This document shows positions 4,642 to 12,370 of a stretch of 40,277 nt of DNA, piece after piece. The position numbers were made by a program, and so were the translations under genes. The notes beneath the pieces were generated by a model, which saw only the letters and a list, made by a program, of their open reading frames with translations, searched no databases and was not told the origin of the DNA. The DNA is from a virus. Lineage: Duplodnaviria; Heunggongvirae; Uroviricota; Caudoviricetes. Location: IMG/VR virus record IMGVR_UViG_2563366843_000005; one strand, given 5' to 3'. The stretch's first letter is position 1. Each line of letters opens with the position of its first letter.

Positions 4642-4956
4642 GTGTCTAGAATGCTGATTGATAAGTTAAAGTCTTCTCCGATGTACCCAACCGCAGAAAT
4701 GGGTAAGCAGTCGAAAAAGAATCATTGGTATGTAAGGGAAAAGGGGAGTGATCAACCGCAAGACCAGACCTGGAGAGCTTGGTGGGAATCTCGCTCGCTT
4801 GGCAAAGGCCATATCAATTGGAGATCTACATGCGTAGCAGAAAATGTACTCGATCCATTCAATCCGCCATCTCGGTTTGAGGTTGATTTCAAAGCCCCTG
4901 ATGGGAGTATCTACAACCTTGAATTTGCTTTGGCTCCACACGGCCCAAACAAGTGA
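4642..4956 (+). CDS. hypothetical protein (ATG at 4651), antisense to the pL operon
   Basis: 104-aa hydrophilic, Trp-rich ORF; AAGG about 9 nt upstream of ATG 4651; no recognisable family. Confidence 0.35.
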   Translation: MSRMLIDKLKSSPMYPTAEMGKQSKKNHWYVREKGSDQPQDQTWRAWWESRSLGKGHINWRSTCVAENVLDPFNPPSRFEVDFKAPDGSIYNLEFALAPHGPNK

Positions 4957-4960
4957 GTAG

Positions 4961-5371
4961 TTAGTGGCTCAGACCACCGCCAGTACCATTCAGGTAAACC
5001 TCCACGAGCAAATCTTTTGTGTACGTTCGTTCGATGCCGCGATGCAAGTAAAGCCGACCGCGCAAATTAGCTGATGCCGTCCAGGTACCATCTTTGTGTT
5101 TAACCAGCATACCTGGCCGGACGGCACCGCGATTAACGGTCTGAGTTCCGTAATGTTGATGAACCATAAAAACTCCTGCCCGTAAGCTGGGCTGCTGAAC
5201 ATATAGAGACTTCTGCGCGTATTCAGGCGGTGGATGGCCGCCGGTTGTCATAACTAAGCCGCCTCGTTGAAGCGACTGAGGTATGAAGTGTTGAGTTGAT
5301 TTCAGCTGGTCACACCGACGTTCACGCGTCCGCTTCACCCCTCGCACTCCCCGGAGCCTGCTGAAATTCAA
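4961..5371 (-). CDS. hypothetical protein, first ORF downstream of pL; possible N-like antiterminator
   Basis: GC-rich ORF starting at TTG or an internal GTG/ATG; N-proximal Arg-rich stretch (VKRTRERRCDQLK) resembles arginine-rich motifs of N proteins; no C-terminal similarity to lambda N. Confidence 0.3.
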   Translation of the reverse strand: MNFSRLRGVRGVKRTRERRCDQLKSTQHFIPQSLQRGGLVMTTGGHPPPEYAQKSLYVQQPSLRAGVFMVHQHYGTQTVNRGAVRPGMLVKHKDGTWTASANLRGRLYLHRGIERTYTKDLLVEVYLNGTGGGLSH

Positions 5372-5431
5372 GCTGCGGATCTAAGCGGTCATCGCAACGG
5401 CGAATCAGGTGGTTGCCGTATCGTTGTGTTG

Positions 5432-5487
5432 TTGCGACATGGTGATAATAGCTATTGCTATTAGTGATATCAATACTTATTGCTATT
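5432..5487 (-). promoter_or_regulatory. pL promoter with OL operators (-35 TTGATA at 5468-5473, 17-bp spacer, -10 TATTAT at 5445-5450, minus strand)
   Basis: Sigma-70-like hexamers on the minus strand; three TTGC-core 8-mers at 5432, 5455 and 5480 (about 25-bp spacing) mirror the array at PR. Confidence 0.5.
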
Positions 5488-5612
5488 GATTGATGCATTT
5501 TGATATTAACTGTTTGATAGCAAAAGGAATTAATTTTGTGACTTGCATCGCATAGCGATAACTGAAGCGGGGGTTGTGGTGGTTTTTTGAACGGTGTGTG
5601 ATGAGGGGAGGC

Positions 5613-5640
5613 AAAAGAAAACCCGGCACGACGGCCGGGG
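5613..5640 (-). terminator. rho-independent terminator ending the cI operon
   Basis: GC stem CCCGGC/GCCGGG with 6-nt loop, followed on the minus strand by a T-run (TTTTCTTTT), directly after the stop of the 287-aa gene. Confidence 0.6.
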
Positions 5641-5643
5641 AAA

Positions 5644-6507
5644 TCATTTCGCATCTACAATAAATAACCTGTTTATCTGGCCTTTTTTAACAGTAGCCTT
5701 TGCGGTTATAGTGAATACTGCAGATGGATCACCTTTGGTTGATATATATGCACTAAGAGCTCTAATATACGGGTTATTCTTCTTTCCTGCAGCTGGATCG
5801 CTAATTTCAGCAGTGATTCTCTTTTTTGAGTCATCACCATCTAAAATTATTTTAGCTGTCATATTTTGTGCATCAAATTCTGTAAGAAAAGCACGATACT
5901 CACGAAGACCGAGAACTTCATCATCATCAAGCCTATCAATTTCAGCTTTATCTCTCTCGTTAACTTTTAGAAGGCAGCCGTCAACATTTGTTGCAACACT
6001 TATCTGATCGCAAGTATTACCAATAGGTGATACTGCCTGCCTTACAGAGGGGCGAAGCTCTACAGCCATTCGGTCAATCAAAGAGATCAACTTATCAATG
6101 GTTCCAGCATCCTTGTTTCCTAGTGCCTCTATGGCCTTTTCAAGTGACTGCTGCAAAGCTTTCATTTCATCTTTCTTGTTAGAATTTCTCGCAAAAATAT
6201 ATTGTAGTATTGCGCCAAGTATAGTTGCGGCGATCCCCGAGAACAACTGGTTCTGAGTGGCGAAGTTAAGAACTGCTTCAAGAGTAAAGCAGTTAGCTTT
6301 TGCTTCGCGTGCGTAAACCTTAACTTCCTGATAATTAATGTATTTACTATATTTTTGTGTAACAGAGAAAGAAGCTGCTGTTGAGAGAACTTTAGAAAAA
6401 CCCTTTAGGGATTCTCCTAGGCAGTTCAAATCTATTTCATGATTTAAAGCATCTTTTCCGTCATACCTAAGAGAGATTTTTATATCCTGTAAAGCGTCAC
6501 AATCCAT
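5644..6507 (-). CDS. hypothetical protein in the rexAB-equivalent slot; candidate exclusion or defence protein
   Basis: 287-aa ORF, visibly AT-rich, 66 bp downstream of cI on the same strand, followed by a terminator; one central hydrophobic segment ([18 protein letters not shown]); no recognisable family. Confidence 0.6.
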
Positions 6508-6573
6508 AAATCGCTCTCGTCTAATTCTAATTAAATTTACTATCCCCTAAACGACTCATCAGCACAGTACTGA

Positions 6574-7266
6574 TTATCCATGTTTCCTGTACGTCTGGGG
6601 CATGCTCCCAATAACCTTACCGAAGATGAACACCCGGTTCATCTCGTCTTTCTCGATCGGGTCCCACGGTGAGTAGCTCTTGTTATCAGAGATAACCAGC
6701 AGCTTATCCTTCATCATTTGCAGGCGCTTTACATGGGCGGTGTCGTCGTACAGAAACGCATAGATGCCATCACCGTCGAAAGATTTAACCGTGATATCAA
6801 CGAACAGCAGATCACCTGGTTCGATCGTTCCTGACATGCTGTCACCACGCACGTTAATGATGCGGATATTTTCCGCCTTCCTGCCATCGAACATGTGACG
6901 AGCATCGTCAAACGAGTACTCAACCGAGCGTAGGACTTCTACAAACTCACGGTTGATGACTCCCGGCCCGGCACTCACTTCTATATCAAGAACGTCAATC
7001 TTGAAGTATTTGGAATGGTTGACAGTAGGCTTCCCTGATTGTTGACCGTCATTTCTCATCGGGCCTATGCCTGATGAGAGCCACTCTGTTCGAACACCCA
7101 ATGCATTAGCTATTTCAACAATTTTTGTTGAGCCGCGCGCGTTGCCGCTTGTCAGTCTCCAGATTGTTGGTTGAGCTACGCCAGACGCCTTTGCAAGAGC
7201 GCCTTGAGACATCCCAGATTGTTCCATCGCTAGGTTTAAGCGATCAGCAAGAGTTTCTTTTTTCAT
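6574..7266 (-). CDS. cI: CI-type prophage repressor (HTH plus S24 LexA-like peptidase domain)
   Basis: N-terminal HTH; Ala-Gly cleavage site (VSAGPG); GDSM serine and downstream KRL lysine of S24 peptidases; start set at ATG 7264-7266 (leaderless relative to putative PRM) rather than the upstream ORF start at 7323. Confidence 0.85.
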   Translation of the reverse strand: MKKETLADRLNLAMEQSGMSQGALAKASGVAQPTIWRLTSGNARGSTKIVEIANALGVRTEWLSSGIGPMRNDGQQSGKPTVNHSKYFKIDVLDIEVSAGPGVINREFVEVLRSVEYSFDDARHMFDGRKAENIRIINVRGDSMSGTIEPGDLLFVDITVKSFDGDGIYAFLYDDTAHVKRLQMMKDKLLVISDNKSYSPWDPIEKDEMNRVFIFGKVIGSMPQTYRKHG

Positions 7267-7275
7267 AAGTTTTAA

Positions 7276-7345
7276 TTTATACGCTTGCGTATTGATGGTC
7301 AAAACACGTTTTGCTATTGTCATGGTTAATACGCATTGCTATTAT
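7276..7345. promoter_or_regulatory. OR operator region with divergent PRM (leftward) and PR (rightward; -35 TTGTCA 7317-7322, -10 TATTAT 7340-7345)
   Basis: TTGC-core 8-mers at 7285, 7311 and 7336 at the same spacing as at pL; 14-bp palindromes ATACGCTTGCGTAT (7279-7292) and CAAAACACGTTTTG (7300-7313); PRM-like TTGACC-15-TATAAA on the minus strand ending next to the cI ATG. Confidence 0.55.
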
Positions 7346-7376
7346 TCATTCATTGTAATACCAATAGGAATTGATA

Positions 7377-7604
7377 ATGACAAATCAAACCATTCAACTC
7401 GCAATCAGTATTACAGGTAGTCAAAAACGACTGGCAGATCTATGCGGTGTAGCCCAGCCCACTGTTTGGCGTTGGCTACACGGTGGCGGAATTGATGCCC
7501 GCTATGTAATGAAAATTGTCTCAGCCACTGGTGGAAAGATTAAGCCAGCAGATATTCGTCCCGACCTCGCACCATTGTTTAACGCGAGTAATTCTGCCGC
7601 CTAA
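7377..7604 (+). CDS. cro: Cro-like HTH regulator
   Basis: Small HTH protein (QKRLADLCGVAQPTVWRW) divergent from cI and directly downstream of PR. Confidence 0.7.
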   Translation: MTNQTIQLAISITGSQKRLADLCGVAQPTVWRWLHGGGIDARYVMKIVSATGGKIKPADIRPDLAPLFNASNSAA

Positions 7605-7634
7605 TCTGCGGCGTTAACTGATAAGGCGATGATT

Positions 7635-8174
7635 ATGCAACCACTTACATACCAACAGACTAGCGGATTTAGCCCGACTGCGGTGATAAATCGTTCTCAA
7701 ATAAAACAGGTGCCAGGCCACGAAAAAATTCGTGATGCCGTCCGCGCCTGGTCTGCTGAAGATAATCAGGATGTAGTTGCCGCACTCATTGTGAATGAGT
7801 ATCGAGCACAGGGCGGCGGCACCATCGATTTTCCTGATGATGTCAGTCGTGCACGCCAGAAGCTGTTCCGCTTCCTCGATAACAAATTCGATTCTGAAAA
7901 ATACCGAAATAACGTGCGTGAACTGACCCCGGCAATTCTGGCGGTATTACCGCTGGAATATCGCGGCCACCTGGTTGAGCAGGATAGCTTCATGGCTCGG
8001 CTGGCTGAAATGGAAAAGGAACTCAGTGAGGCAAAGCAGGCGGTCATTCTCAACGCACCACGCCACCAGAAACTGAAGGAGATGAGTGAAGGCATTGTGT
8101 CGATGTTTCGAGTGGACCCGGATCTGGCTGGTCCATTGATGGCGATGGTCACCACCATGCTGGGGGCAATATGA
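7635..8174 (+). CDS. hypothetical early regulatory protein in the cII position
   Basis: 179-aa ORF between cro and O; much larger than lambda CII with no recalled similarity to it. Confidence 0.4.
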   Translation: MQPLTYQQTSGFSPTAVINRSQIKQVPGHEKIRDAVRAWSAEDNQDVVAALIVNEYRAQGGGTIDFPDDVSRARQKLFRFLDNKFDSEKYRNNVRELTPAILAVLPLEYRGHLVEQDSFMARLAEMEKELSEAKQAVILNAPRHQKLKEMSEGIVSMFRVDPDLAGPLMAMVTTMLGAI

Positions 8175-10187: not shown

Positions 10188-10254
10188 TGAAACAGGTGAG
10201 TTGATTTCAAACTGTAGTACAATTCTCTCCAGTTTGAACAGGAAAGAATATGCT

Positions 10255-10587
10255 ATGAACCCTTATATTTATCTTGGTGGTGCAATACTTGCAGAGGTCA
10301 TTGGTACAACCTTAATGAAGTTTTCAGAAGGTTTTACACGGTTATGGCCATCTGTTGGTACAATTATTTGTTATTGTGCATCATTCTGGTTATTAGCTCA
10401 GACGCTGGCTTATATTCCTACAGGGATTGCTTATGCTATCTGGTCAGGAGTCGGTATTGTCCTGATTAGCTTACTGTCATGGGGATTTTTCGGCCAACGG
10501 CTGGACCTGCCAGCCATTATAGGCATGATGTTGATTTGTGCCGGTGTGTTGGTTATTAATTTATTGTCACGAAGCACACCACATTAA
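10255..10587 (+). CDS. emrE: small multidrug resistance (SMR) efflux transporter EmrE
   Basis: 110 aa from MNPYIYLGGAILAEVIGTTLMKFSEGF..., matching E. coli EmrE (a DLP12 prophage gene in K-12). Confidence 0.9.
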   Translation: MNPYIYLGGAILAEVIGTTLMKFSEGFTRLWPSVGTIICYCASFWLLAQTLAYIPTGIAYAIWSGVGIVLISLLSWGFFGQRLDLPAIIGMMLICAGVLVINLLSRSTPH

Positions 10588-10618
10588 AAATAATTTGTTT
10601 CTAAACGACTAAAATATG

Positions 10619-10650
10619 GAGGCTCTTATATTTATATGAGCCTCGTTTTA
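10619..10650 (+). terminator. putative intrinsic terminator after emrE
   Basis: Stem GAGGCTC/GAGCCTC with AT-rich 12-nt loop followed by a weak T-run. Confidence 0.45.
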
Positions 10651-10843
10651 TGCTTTTTGTTAATGTCTTTATTTTTTTATGTATTCTTTTGTGCTTTCAA
10701 GATTATGGCGTAAGAAAATTGCAATACGATTATTGTTGTATATTCAAGATAATGTGACCTTAATTGTCTTTTTAAATAAAAATTAAACAAAAATTATATC
10801 TCACCACTAAGGTTTATAAAAGCATACGTTAGCAGGTGTCACC

Positions 10844-12370
10844 ATGAAAAAAGCCATAGCATATATGCGATTTTCATCACCAGGTCAGATGTCTGGCGAC
10901 TCATTAAACCGACAGAGAAGACTTATTGCTGAATGGTTAAAGGTAAATAGTGATTATTATCTTGATACCATAACATATGAAGATTTAGGATTAAGTGCAT
11001 TCAAAGGAAAGCATGCACAATCAGGAGCTTTTTCGGAATTTTTAGATGCTATAGAGCATGGTTATATATTGCCAGGAACTACATTGTTAGTTGAAAGTCT
11101 GGACAGACTTTCAAGAGAAAAAGTCGGTGAAGCGATTGAGCGTCTGAAATTGATTTTGAATCACGGTATTGATGTTATAACTCTTTGCGATAATACAGTC
11201 TATAATATTGACTCTTTGAATGATCCATATTCATTAATAAAAGCCATACTTATAGCACAAAGGGCAAATGAAGAAAGCGAGATAAAGTCAAGTCGGGTTA
11301 AATTATCATGGAAGAAAAAACGGCAGGATGCACTGGAGTCAGGCACGATTATGACGGCGTCTTGTCCGAGATGGCTCTCCTTAGATGACAAAAGAACGGC
11401 TTTTGTTCCAGACCCCGACAGGGTGAAAACTATTGAGCTAATTTTTAAACTCAGGATGGAAAGGCGCTCATTGAATGCAATAGCCAAGTATTTAAATGAT
11501 CATGCTGTAAAGAATTTCTCAGGAAAAGAAAGTGCATGGGGACCTTCTGTAATTGAAAAATTATTAGCGAATAAAGCTCTGATAGGTATATGCGTACCTT
11601 CATATCGTGCAAGAGGTAAAGGAATAAGTGAAATCGCTGGCTATTATCCCAGAGTCATATCAGATGATTTGTTTTACGCTGTGCAGGAAATTCGGTTGGC
11701 ACCTTTTGGTATTAGCAATAGTAGCAAAAATCCTATGTTGATAAATCTACTTCGAACAGTTATGAAGTGCGAGGCTTGTGGTAATACCATGATTGTTCAT
11801 GCGGTATCTGGAAGTTTGCATGGCTATTATGTTTGTCCGATGAGAAGACTGCATCGATGTGACAGGCCATCAATAAAGAGAGATTTGGTTGATTATAATA
11901 TCATTAATGAGTTGCTTTTTAATTGTAGTAAAATCCAACCAGTTGAAAACAAGAAAGATGCTAATGAAACTTTAGAGTTGAAAATTATTGAGCTCCAGAT
12001 GAAAATTAATAATTTAATTGCTGCATTATCTGTTGCGCCTGAAGTTACCGCTATAGCAGAAAAAATCAGAGTATTAGATAAGGAATTACGAAGGGCTTCT
12101 GTATCATTAAAAACTTTGAAGAGTAAAGCGGTGAGCTCACTTGGTGATTTTCATGCTATTGACTTAACCAGTAAAAATGGACGAGAGTTATGCCGTACAC
12201 TTGCCTATAAAACATTCGAAAAAATCATAATTAATACGGATAATAAAACCTGTGATATCTATTTTATGAATGGCATTGTTTTTAAACACTATCCTTTAAT
12301 GAAAGTAATATCCGCCCAGCAGGCGATAAGTGCTCTCAAATATATGGTTGATGGTGAGATTTATTTCTAA
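10844..12370 (+). CDS. ybcK: large serine recombinase (resolvase/invertase family), YbcK-like
   Basis: 508 aa, low-GC; N-terminal resolvase-type domain (AYMRFSSPGQ, catalytic Ser context) plus large recombinase domain with Cys-rich zinc-ribbon region. Confidence 0.85.
   Translation: MKKAIAYMRFSSPGQMSGDSLNRQRRLIAEWLKVNSDYYLDTITYEDLGLSAFKGKHAQSGAFSEFLDAIEHGYILPGTTLLVESLDRLSREKVGEAIERLKLILNHGIDVITLCDNTVYNIDSLNDPYSLIKAILIAQRANEESEIKSSRVKLSWKKKRQDALESGTIMTASCPRWLSLDDKRTAFVPDPDRVKTIELIFKLRMERRSLNAIAKYLNDHAVKNFSGKESAWGPSVIEKLLANKALIGICVPSYRARGKGISEIAGYYPRVISDDLFYAVQEIRLAPFGISNSSKNPMLINLLRTVMKCEACGNTMIVHAVSGSLHGYYVCPMRRLHRCDRPSIKRDLVDYNIINELLFNCSKIQPVENKKDANETLELKIIELQMKINNLIAALSVAPEVTAIAEKIRVLDKELRRASVSLKTLKSKAVSSLGDFHAIDLTSKNGRELCRTLAYKTFEKIIINTDNKTCDIYFMNGIVFKHYPLMKVISAQQAISALKYMVDGEIYF

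Follow-up and report, generated by a model that had tools for sequence, protein, structure and literature searches.

A foreign gene cassette between cI and the immunity terminator of a lambda-like Escherichia coli prophage encodes a DUF7946-DUF7947 protein with a possible anti-phage function

The DNA analysed here, referred to as the window, is the whole 40,277-nt stretch of IMG/VR virus record IMGVR_UViG_2563366843_000005. It represents a lambda-like Escherichia coli prophage, and many E. coli chromosomes match its segments 5600-6600 and 5300-7400 at 100% identity. The gene under study is a coding sequence of 287 amino acids (aa) at 5644..6507 on the minus strand, supported by the list of open reading frames (ORFs) and by Pfam, PHROG and RefSeq, and it is an orthologue of phi80 protein 40A. 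At least 1,000 contigs carry the identical RefSeq protein, WP_000340376.1. Between the stop codon of cI and the gene start there are 66 bp, and the gene is a compositionally foreign cassette, with a guanine-cytosine (GC) content of 0.384 and a third-position value (GC3) of 0.295, compared with 0.490 for the window and with 0.486 (GC3 0.537) for cI. It is also a real coding sequence under strong purifying selection. The ratio of nonsynonymous to synonymous substitution rates (dN/dS) is 0.055-0.060, at a dS of about 0.9, in comparisons with orthologues whose proteins share 90% identity, which excludes a dead gene.

The features around the gene are those of a lambdoid immunity region. Upstream on the same strand lies the cI-type repressor gene (6574..7266, minus strand), whose translation contains helix-turn-helix (HTH) and S24 peptidase parts and which corresponds to RefSeq WP_000712396.1, with matches to Pfam Peptidase_S24 (1.6e-18) and to the PHROG annotated 'transcriptional repressor' (4.6e-70). 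Its reading frame is open to 7323 (ORF 6574..7323), and the RefSeq start at 7266 yields 230 aa. A promoter-like site found by pattern scan at 7274..7302 on the minus strand (TTGACC, 17-nt spacer, TAAATT) has a -10 hexamer that ends 8 nt ahead of the RefSeq start codon and, by analogy with lambda and phi80, is putatively pRM. Such a position ahead of the ATG would make the cI mRNA leaderless or nearly so, like that of lambda. Between cI and the gene is a 66-nt spacer (6508..6573, minus strand). Beginning 3 bases past the gene stop is an intrinsic-terminator-like hairpin with a T-run (5613..5639, minus strand; fold -12.4 kcal/mol), composed of a 6-bp all-GC stem at 5639-5622 with a 6-nt loop, followed by TTTTCTTTTG; it would end the cI operon. 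Further on is the OL/pL region (5445..5488, minus strand), where the pattern scan found a promoter-like site at 5473-5445 (TTGATA, 17-nt spacer, TATTAT) together with operator-like repeats. The repeats D1, D2 and I1 recur within 7290-7379, between cI and a cro-like gene. Since operator words are shared on either side of it, the gene lies within the immunity region, at the position of lambda rexAB. The sequence-only reading had described an AT-rich 287-aa ORF 66 bp past the cI stop on the same strand, in compositional contrast with the backbone, followed by an intrinsic terminator and occupying the rexAB slot. The ORF list, the spacer length, the GC values and the hairpin and T-run at 5639-5613 bear out this description, as does the location of the gene, on the strand of cI and between cI and OL/pL.

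Comparison with related prophages indicates how the gene came to occupy this place. Homology with sibling E. coli prophages ends at 5639, the outer edge of the hairpin, and resumes at 6573-6575, at the cI stop codon. The mobile unit is thus 5640-6573, 934 bp, comprising the 66-nt spacer and the ORF. The left border at the terminator is the same in isolated phages; backbone homology with sibling prophages and phages reaches 5639-5641 and so covers the hairpin, which belongs to the phage backbone and lies outside the cassette. Other contents occupy the same slot in siblings (loci L012 650-2052, L013 644-2060, L015 719-1438 and L014). The first is a DUF6932 protein with a 310-aa protein, matching PADLOC PDC-M63A (7e-43) and PDC-M63B (2e-42). 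The second is a 353-aa protein with an ASCH protein, matching PDC-M11A (3e-133) and PDC-M11B (7e-52). The third consists of two small ORFs of 87 and 147 aa, the longer with weak PbeC matches only (E 0.004-0.0085) and the shorter with none, and the fourth is about 120 bp of unrelated spacer with no annotated gene. Comparison of cI-adjacent cargo had been proposed from the sequence, and its outcome is clear: the site from the cI stop to the terminator is a precise cassette exchange hotspot, holding PDC-M63, PDC-M11, small ORFs or nothing. Two of the three non-empty alternatives match defence-candidate models, and an association of the slot with defence-type cargo is consistent with these matches, though PDC entries are candidates and not validated systems. 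The whole cassette is present in 77 of 5,426 complete E. coli genomes. Pattern scans of the gene strand found no promoter-like site and no terminator within 5640-6573, the spacer included. A cassette of this kind, set precisely between the end of cI and the terminator, would therefore be co-transcribed with cI.

Disrupted versions of the locus were also observed. In E. coli VG1046-3E9 (NZ_CP128594.1 3681396-3683173) an otherwise identical region is split by IS1A in or beside the gene, and shortened family copies exist, for example one (locus L088) that retains just residues 1-161. Loss of the gene is evidently not fatal to the host.

The protein belongs to a defined family. The sequence-only reading had found no recognisable family, and this does not hold. 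Pfam DUF7946 matches residues 11-191 (E 3.8e-55, 187.2 bits against a cut-off of 27) and DUF7947 matches residues 201-287 (E 1.4e-18, 67.1 bits against a cut-off of 27), both above their gathering scores, with DUF7946 at the N-terminus and DUF7947 at the C-terminus. PHROG 5147, of unknown function, matches over the full length at 1.5e-178, and the phi80 orthologue was sequenced in the 1980s. When 1.84 billion representative proteins were searched with a profile, about 500 related clusters at 50% identity were retrieved, and most of the best 150 are 265-320 aa long; a second, word-indexed protein search with a wide family alignment added almost no further members. Weak matches confined to the N-terminal part were obtained to PADLOC PDC-S42, NCBIfam LAPAL_fam and PHROGs 3243 and 13337. 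In the NCBIfam search this below-threshold LAPAL_fam match (26 bits against a cut-off of 60) was the only return. These N-terminal matches suggest a wider superfamily that may have a common N-terminal module and varied C-terminal parts.

The position behind a repressor is retained across much of the family. The sample for genomic context comprised 95 loci with a family member, drawn from phage records, genomes, IMG/VR and assemblies, to which a scan of genome contigs contributed only 5. An S24-repressor ORF ends at most 600 bp upstream on the same strand at 81 of the 95 loci, within a search region that reaches 30 bp past the gene start, and the gap is below 120 bp in 62 of these 81. The upstream repressors form 17 clusters at <60% identity, indicating that the gene moves between immunity regions and keeps its place behind the repressor. 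The arrangement is found in 9 of the 13 family clusters defined at 80% identity, and it includes prophages of Morganella, Neisseria and Vitreoscilla whose family proteins are only about 50% identical. Two exceptions that were examined do contain a repressor, with other small ORFs between it and the gene. At others the family gene lies at different prophage accessory sites, for example behind the lysis genes or in the neighbourhood of portal and KilA-N genes. All 95 inspected loci are prophage-type contexts. In the Vitreoscilla sp. C1 prophage (L003 7661-9274) the next gene, about 800 bp past the family gene in the same leftward region, encodes a 537-aa SIR2_2 protein that matches PADLOC PDC-S25 at 2e-142 and ThsA more weakly, and is a second defence-type gene.

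The closest phage record is phi80 protein 40A (UniProt P14817; YP_007947967.1), with 62% identity over residues 1-285, 99% of the length. The similarity is full-length and collinear, and the genomic slot is shared: 40A has 288 aa and the same two Pfam domains, and is encoded on the cI strand between cI and the OL/pL operators. The two phages differ in repressor and immunity, and the two proteins fall into separate 80%-identity clusters. The phi80 record carries the label 'acetate kinase superfamily domain', which was not reproduced by Pfam, NCBIfam, PDB-profile or structure searches on the 62%-identical orthologue. On phi80 lysogens T4 does not plate and the P1 yield is cut tenfold, with no gene assigned to either phenotype (Rotman et al., PMC2885432). 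The Tai/Ati tail-assembly defence system of phi80 does not account for 40A, since it consists of other genes, orf63 and orf64 (PMC11364771). From the shared slot, 40A may be the gene responsible for the T4 and P1 phenotypes.

Known defence systems were compared with the protein. Like lambda rexA and rexB, the gene lies downstream of cI and upstream of the immunity terminator and OL, expression in the lysogen would be expected alike, and the function proposed for it is of the Rex kind, since other phages would be excluded. It differs in that one ORF rather than two genes lies between cI and the terminator, and no multi-pass membrane partner like RexB is present. That the protein would not resemble RexA or RexB had been anticipated from the sequence, and hhalign of the 106-sequence family profile gave probabilities of 0.2% and 0.1%, respectively, which rules out a RexA/RexB homologue. 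BstA of Salmonella prophage BTP1 follows the same positional logic, with a domain content unlike that of the 287-aa protein. Against PADLOC-DB 2.0.0, at E up to 1, no named, characterised system and hence no Rex model was matched; the sole return was PDC-S42, in which residues 9-127 of the protein align with profile positions 4-113 of 302 (E 1.5e-4). PDC-S42 is likewise a single protein of about 300 aa whose N-terminal region is weakly similar to DUF7946, whereas its C-terminal part does not match and it is itself only a candidate. Among 106 distant relatives, 27 match PDC-S42, with a best E of 3.2e-8 and a reach to profile position 199.

A published prediction exists for the exact protein. 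In the DefensePredictor study (DeWeirdt, Mahoney and Laub, Science 2026; PMC13092281, Tables S5 and S10), WP_000340376.1 carries the label 'Predicted novel defense gene' and has mean log-odds of 6.28 in 69 strains and 7.45 in 3,000 strains, the strict cut-off being 4. In the validation reported there, 45% of tested units protected, at a rate that rose with the score, and 55% gave no protection (PMC13092281). The family motif was found in none of the sequences of the validated systems (PMC13092281), and literature searches found no main text that mentions DUF7946, DUF7947, PDC-S42, phi80 with 40A, or WP_000340376. With a Pfam family, a phi80 orthologue known since the 1980s and this listing, the gene is less novel than the sequence-only reading claimed. 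The part of that reading that called it a defence candidate stands and is strengthened by the slot cargo, the 17 repressor types, the PDC-S42 link and the DefensePredictor listing, and its function is still arrived at by inference; the part that called it undescribed is only partly true, given that the prediction was already published, if only in supplementary tables.

The architecture of the protein was predicted with an AlphaFold2 model built from 19 homologues, with a mean predicted local distance difference test (pLDDT) of 79 and a predicted template modelling score (pTM) of 0.61. The DUF7946 domain (residues 11-191; 5935..6477, minus strand), delimited by Pfam, alignments and the model, opens with an alpha/beta part, followed by a hydrophobic helix and a bundle of helices, and it contains the most conserved motif, RYDGxDAxxHxIxLxxLGxSLxG. 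In order, the model places a beta-strand and a long helix at 11-50, a beta-hairpin at 64-76, a poorly defined stretch with a hydrophobic helix at 92-108, three to four helices at 112-158, a small beta unit at 168-183 and a confident beta-barrel at 197-286. The barrel corresponds to the DUF7947 domain (residues 201-287; 5647..5907, minus strand), which is basic, with an isoelectric point (pI) of 9.5, appears similar to an oligonucleotide/oligosaccharide-binding (OB) fold, and is somewhat more variable than the N-terminal half. As modelled, it is small and closed and can be superimposed on known OB folds. A structure search returned no solved structure matching the whole protein, a PDB sequence search with the family profile gave nothing below E 0.02, and the three full-length matches among the BFVD viral structures are all uncharacterised viral proteins. 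Nearly invariant positions across the 106 distant relatives are limited to G17, S33, G36, P161, G163, D237, P238 and Y247, and no catalytic-looking residues are conserved among them; so small a set argues against an enzyme.

A single hydrophobic segment, marginal for membrane insertion, is located at residues 88-106 (6190..6246, minus strand). Its Kyte-Doolittle 19-mer mean is 1.85, the value is at least 1.49 in all 19 close relatives, with a range of 1.5-2.5 in the close subfamily, and the position is conserved. The model is less confident here, with block means of pLDDT of 51 (residues 81-90), 74 (91-100) and 90 (101-110). A central hydrophobic helix with charged helical flanks had been read from the sequence: the one segment is indeed present, in this marginal form, and the flanks, which are not simply charged helices, are modelled as alpha/beta on the N-terminal side and as a beta-barrel at the C-terminus. 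In this subfamily the protein may have a role at the membrane.

Taken together, the gene is best explained as prophage accessory cargo made in the lysogen, whose likeliest job would be the exclusion of other phages; we put the chances that it has an anti-phage function in the lysogen at about even. Transcription would proceed together with cI from the pRM-like promoter during repression, as for lambda rexAB, and the protein would be idle in the lysogen. When an unrelated phage infects, the OB-like barrel may bind a phage product, either a nucleic-acid intermediate or a phage protein, and binding would switch the N-terminal DUF7946 module. The module might then self-associate or put its hydrophobic helix into the inner membrane, so that the infected cell or the infection is stopped in the manner of abortive infection. 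This division of labour, in which the barrel senses a phage-made ligand and DUF7946 is the effector, perhaps at the membrane, is a good deal more tentative than the anti-phage function itself and is rather unlikely as stated. T-even-like and P1-like phages are the likely targets, because phi80 lysogens, with 40A in the same slot, block T4 and cut P1. In its fullest form the proposal is of a one-protein equivalent of Rex, in which the barrel would sense a replication or recombination intermediate or a phage protein and free a latent helix that oligomerises in the inner membrane; 40A would be the cause of both the T4 exclusion and the P1 interference of phi80/Lula lysogens; and DUF7946 would be an effector module common to PDC-S42, LAPAL_fam and PHROGs 3243 and 13337, each with its own sensor domain. 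That whole combination is unlikely.

Several observations weigh against an exclusion function or against the steps proposed for it. With respect to the structure, the OB similarity is one of fold only, and all Foldseek E-values against solved structures exceed 0.01. The summed Hessa value of the hydrophobic segment is +1.63 kcal/mol here and has a median of +5.9 in the 106 distant relatives, none of which falls below 0, and a glycine-zipper motif is no commoner in the segment than elsewhere in the family proteins; together, these values and motif frequencies argue against a bona fide transmembrane helix or a glycine zipper as a trait of the family. The PDC entries are candidates, and the match to PDC-S42 is weak and involves the N-terminal domain only. 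Regarding experiments, neither WP_000340376.1 nor its contig is in the full table of 94 screened units (PMC13092281), and literature searches found no experiment on any family member and no paper that maps the T4 and P1 phenotypes of phi80 to a gene. Plating of lambda on phi80 lysogens is normal (PMC2885432). Finally, the gene is dispensable, as the slot is sometimes empty and one E. coli copy has IS1 in or beside the gene.

The conserved place behind the repressor could also be explained by a regulator of the prophage's own life cycle, made with cI, whose basic OB-like domain would bind DNA or single-stranded DNA and tune the lysis-lysogeny decision or SOS induction. A secondary role in the genetic switch has been reported for lambda RexA. 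The gene adjoins S24 repressors of as many as 17 types, its barrel is basic with a fold often used for nucleic-acid binding, and no enzymatic motif is conserved, all as such a regulator would have it. However, the same cI with the same flanks is found with unrelated cargo or with none, so the repressor does not need the gene, and distant family members are located at other prophage accessory sites, far from any repressor. A regulatory function is unlikely.

The hydrophobic segment bears on a different explanation, superinfection exclusion at the envelope, in which the helix would serve as an anchor and DNA entry would be blocked without cell killing, as by P22 SieA or T4 Imm. One hydrophobic 19-mer conserved in the close subfamily and followed by the basic RNSNKK would suit an anchor, and the complete failure of T4 on phi80 lysogens would suit such a block. 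Nevertheless, by the Hessa scale the segment is of marginal hydrophobicity, and in the wider family it does not appear to be kept as a membrane helix, no N-terminal signal-peptide-like stretch was noted on reading the sequence, a soluble domain outside the membrane would be left unexplained, and no named, characterised PADLOC system was matched at E up to 1, which makes an envelope function quite improbable. A host-fitness or selfish moron unrelated to defence, acting for example in stress, colonisation or addiction, is the least probable and is doubtful indeed, for even though cargo that a prophage expresses in the lysogen need not be defensive, 55% of DefensePredictor-tested units gave no protection and DinI-like or toxin-antitoxin neighbours occur at some loci, the alternative slot cargoes (two of three) and the Vitreoscilla neighbour gene match defence-candidate models, the machine-learning score is well over the strict cut-off, and the family is confined to prophage-type contexts at every inspected locus.

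Should the gene protect lysogens, a new single-protein family would join the short list of cI-operon defence genes (rexAB, bstA), a fold combination without precedent in solved structures would be added to the defence repertoire, and the T4 resistance and damped P1 growth of phi80/Lula lysogens would receive a gene-level account. The last point has practical weight, as phi80 contaminates laboratory strains and disturbs P1 transduction, and the phi80 link makes the defence claim directly and cheaply testable. The bounded cassette site is useful in itself, since at least four other contents occur in siblings and it can be mined for further candidates.

The remaining features of the region are as follows. 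On the plus strand, the OR region (7290..7379), identified by pattern scan and repeat comparison, holds the operator-like repeats and a pR-like promoter at 7317-7345 (TTGTCA, 17-nt spacer, TATTAT, with TG in front). Divergent from cI is the cro-like HTH gene (7371..7604, plus strand) of the ORF list, which RefSeq names 'helix-turn-helix domain-containing protein'. The gene in the cII position (7629-8174) is annotated by RefSeq as 'toxin YdaT domain-containing protein', 181 aa here, and is not a lambda-type CII. In the leftward direction, an N-like antiterminator gene is absent between the pL-like promoter and kil (stretches 5190-5445 and 4961-5371), and the first recognisable gene encodes Kil (match to PHROG 294 over residues 60-135 of its ORF). 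Rfam and tRNA scans gave no match anywhere in the window, including the leader of roughly 250 nt that follows pL (about 5190-5445) and might hold a nut- or put-like RNA element. The stretch 5402-5641, extending from a little past pL over OL/pL as far as the terminator, has 92-95% identity in most lambdoid phages having it, among them Perceval, 4A7, Lambda_4C10, D2, 1W and 3W, and 12 of 14 records have no annotation under the match. Between gam and kil, and against the leftward operon, a conserved 104-aa ORF is present at 4642-4956 on the plus strand (PHROG 16212, unknown function, 1e-69). A low-GC island (GC 0.30-0.39) at 10201-12370, between the replication genes and the nin region, encodes a small multidrug resistance (SMR) transporter at 10201-10587 (Pfam 3.4e-35) and, at 10844-12370, a large serine recombinase of 508 aa with Resolvase, Recombinase and Zn_ribbon_recom domains. 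The island resembles a second load of foreign cargo and may be a mobile element inserted into the prophage.

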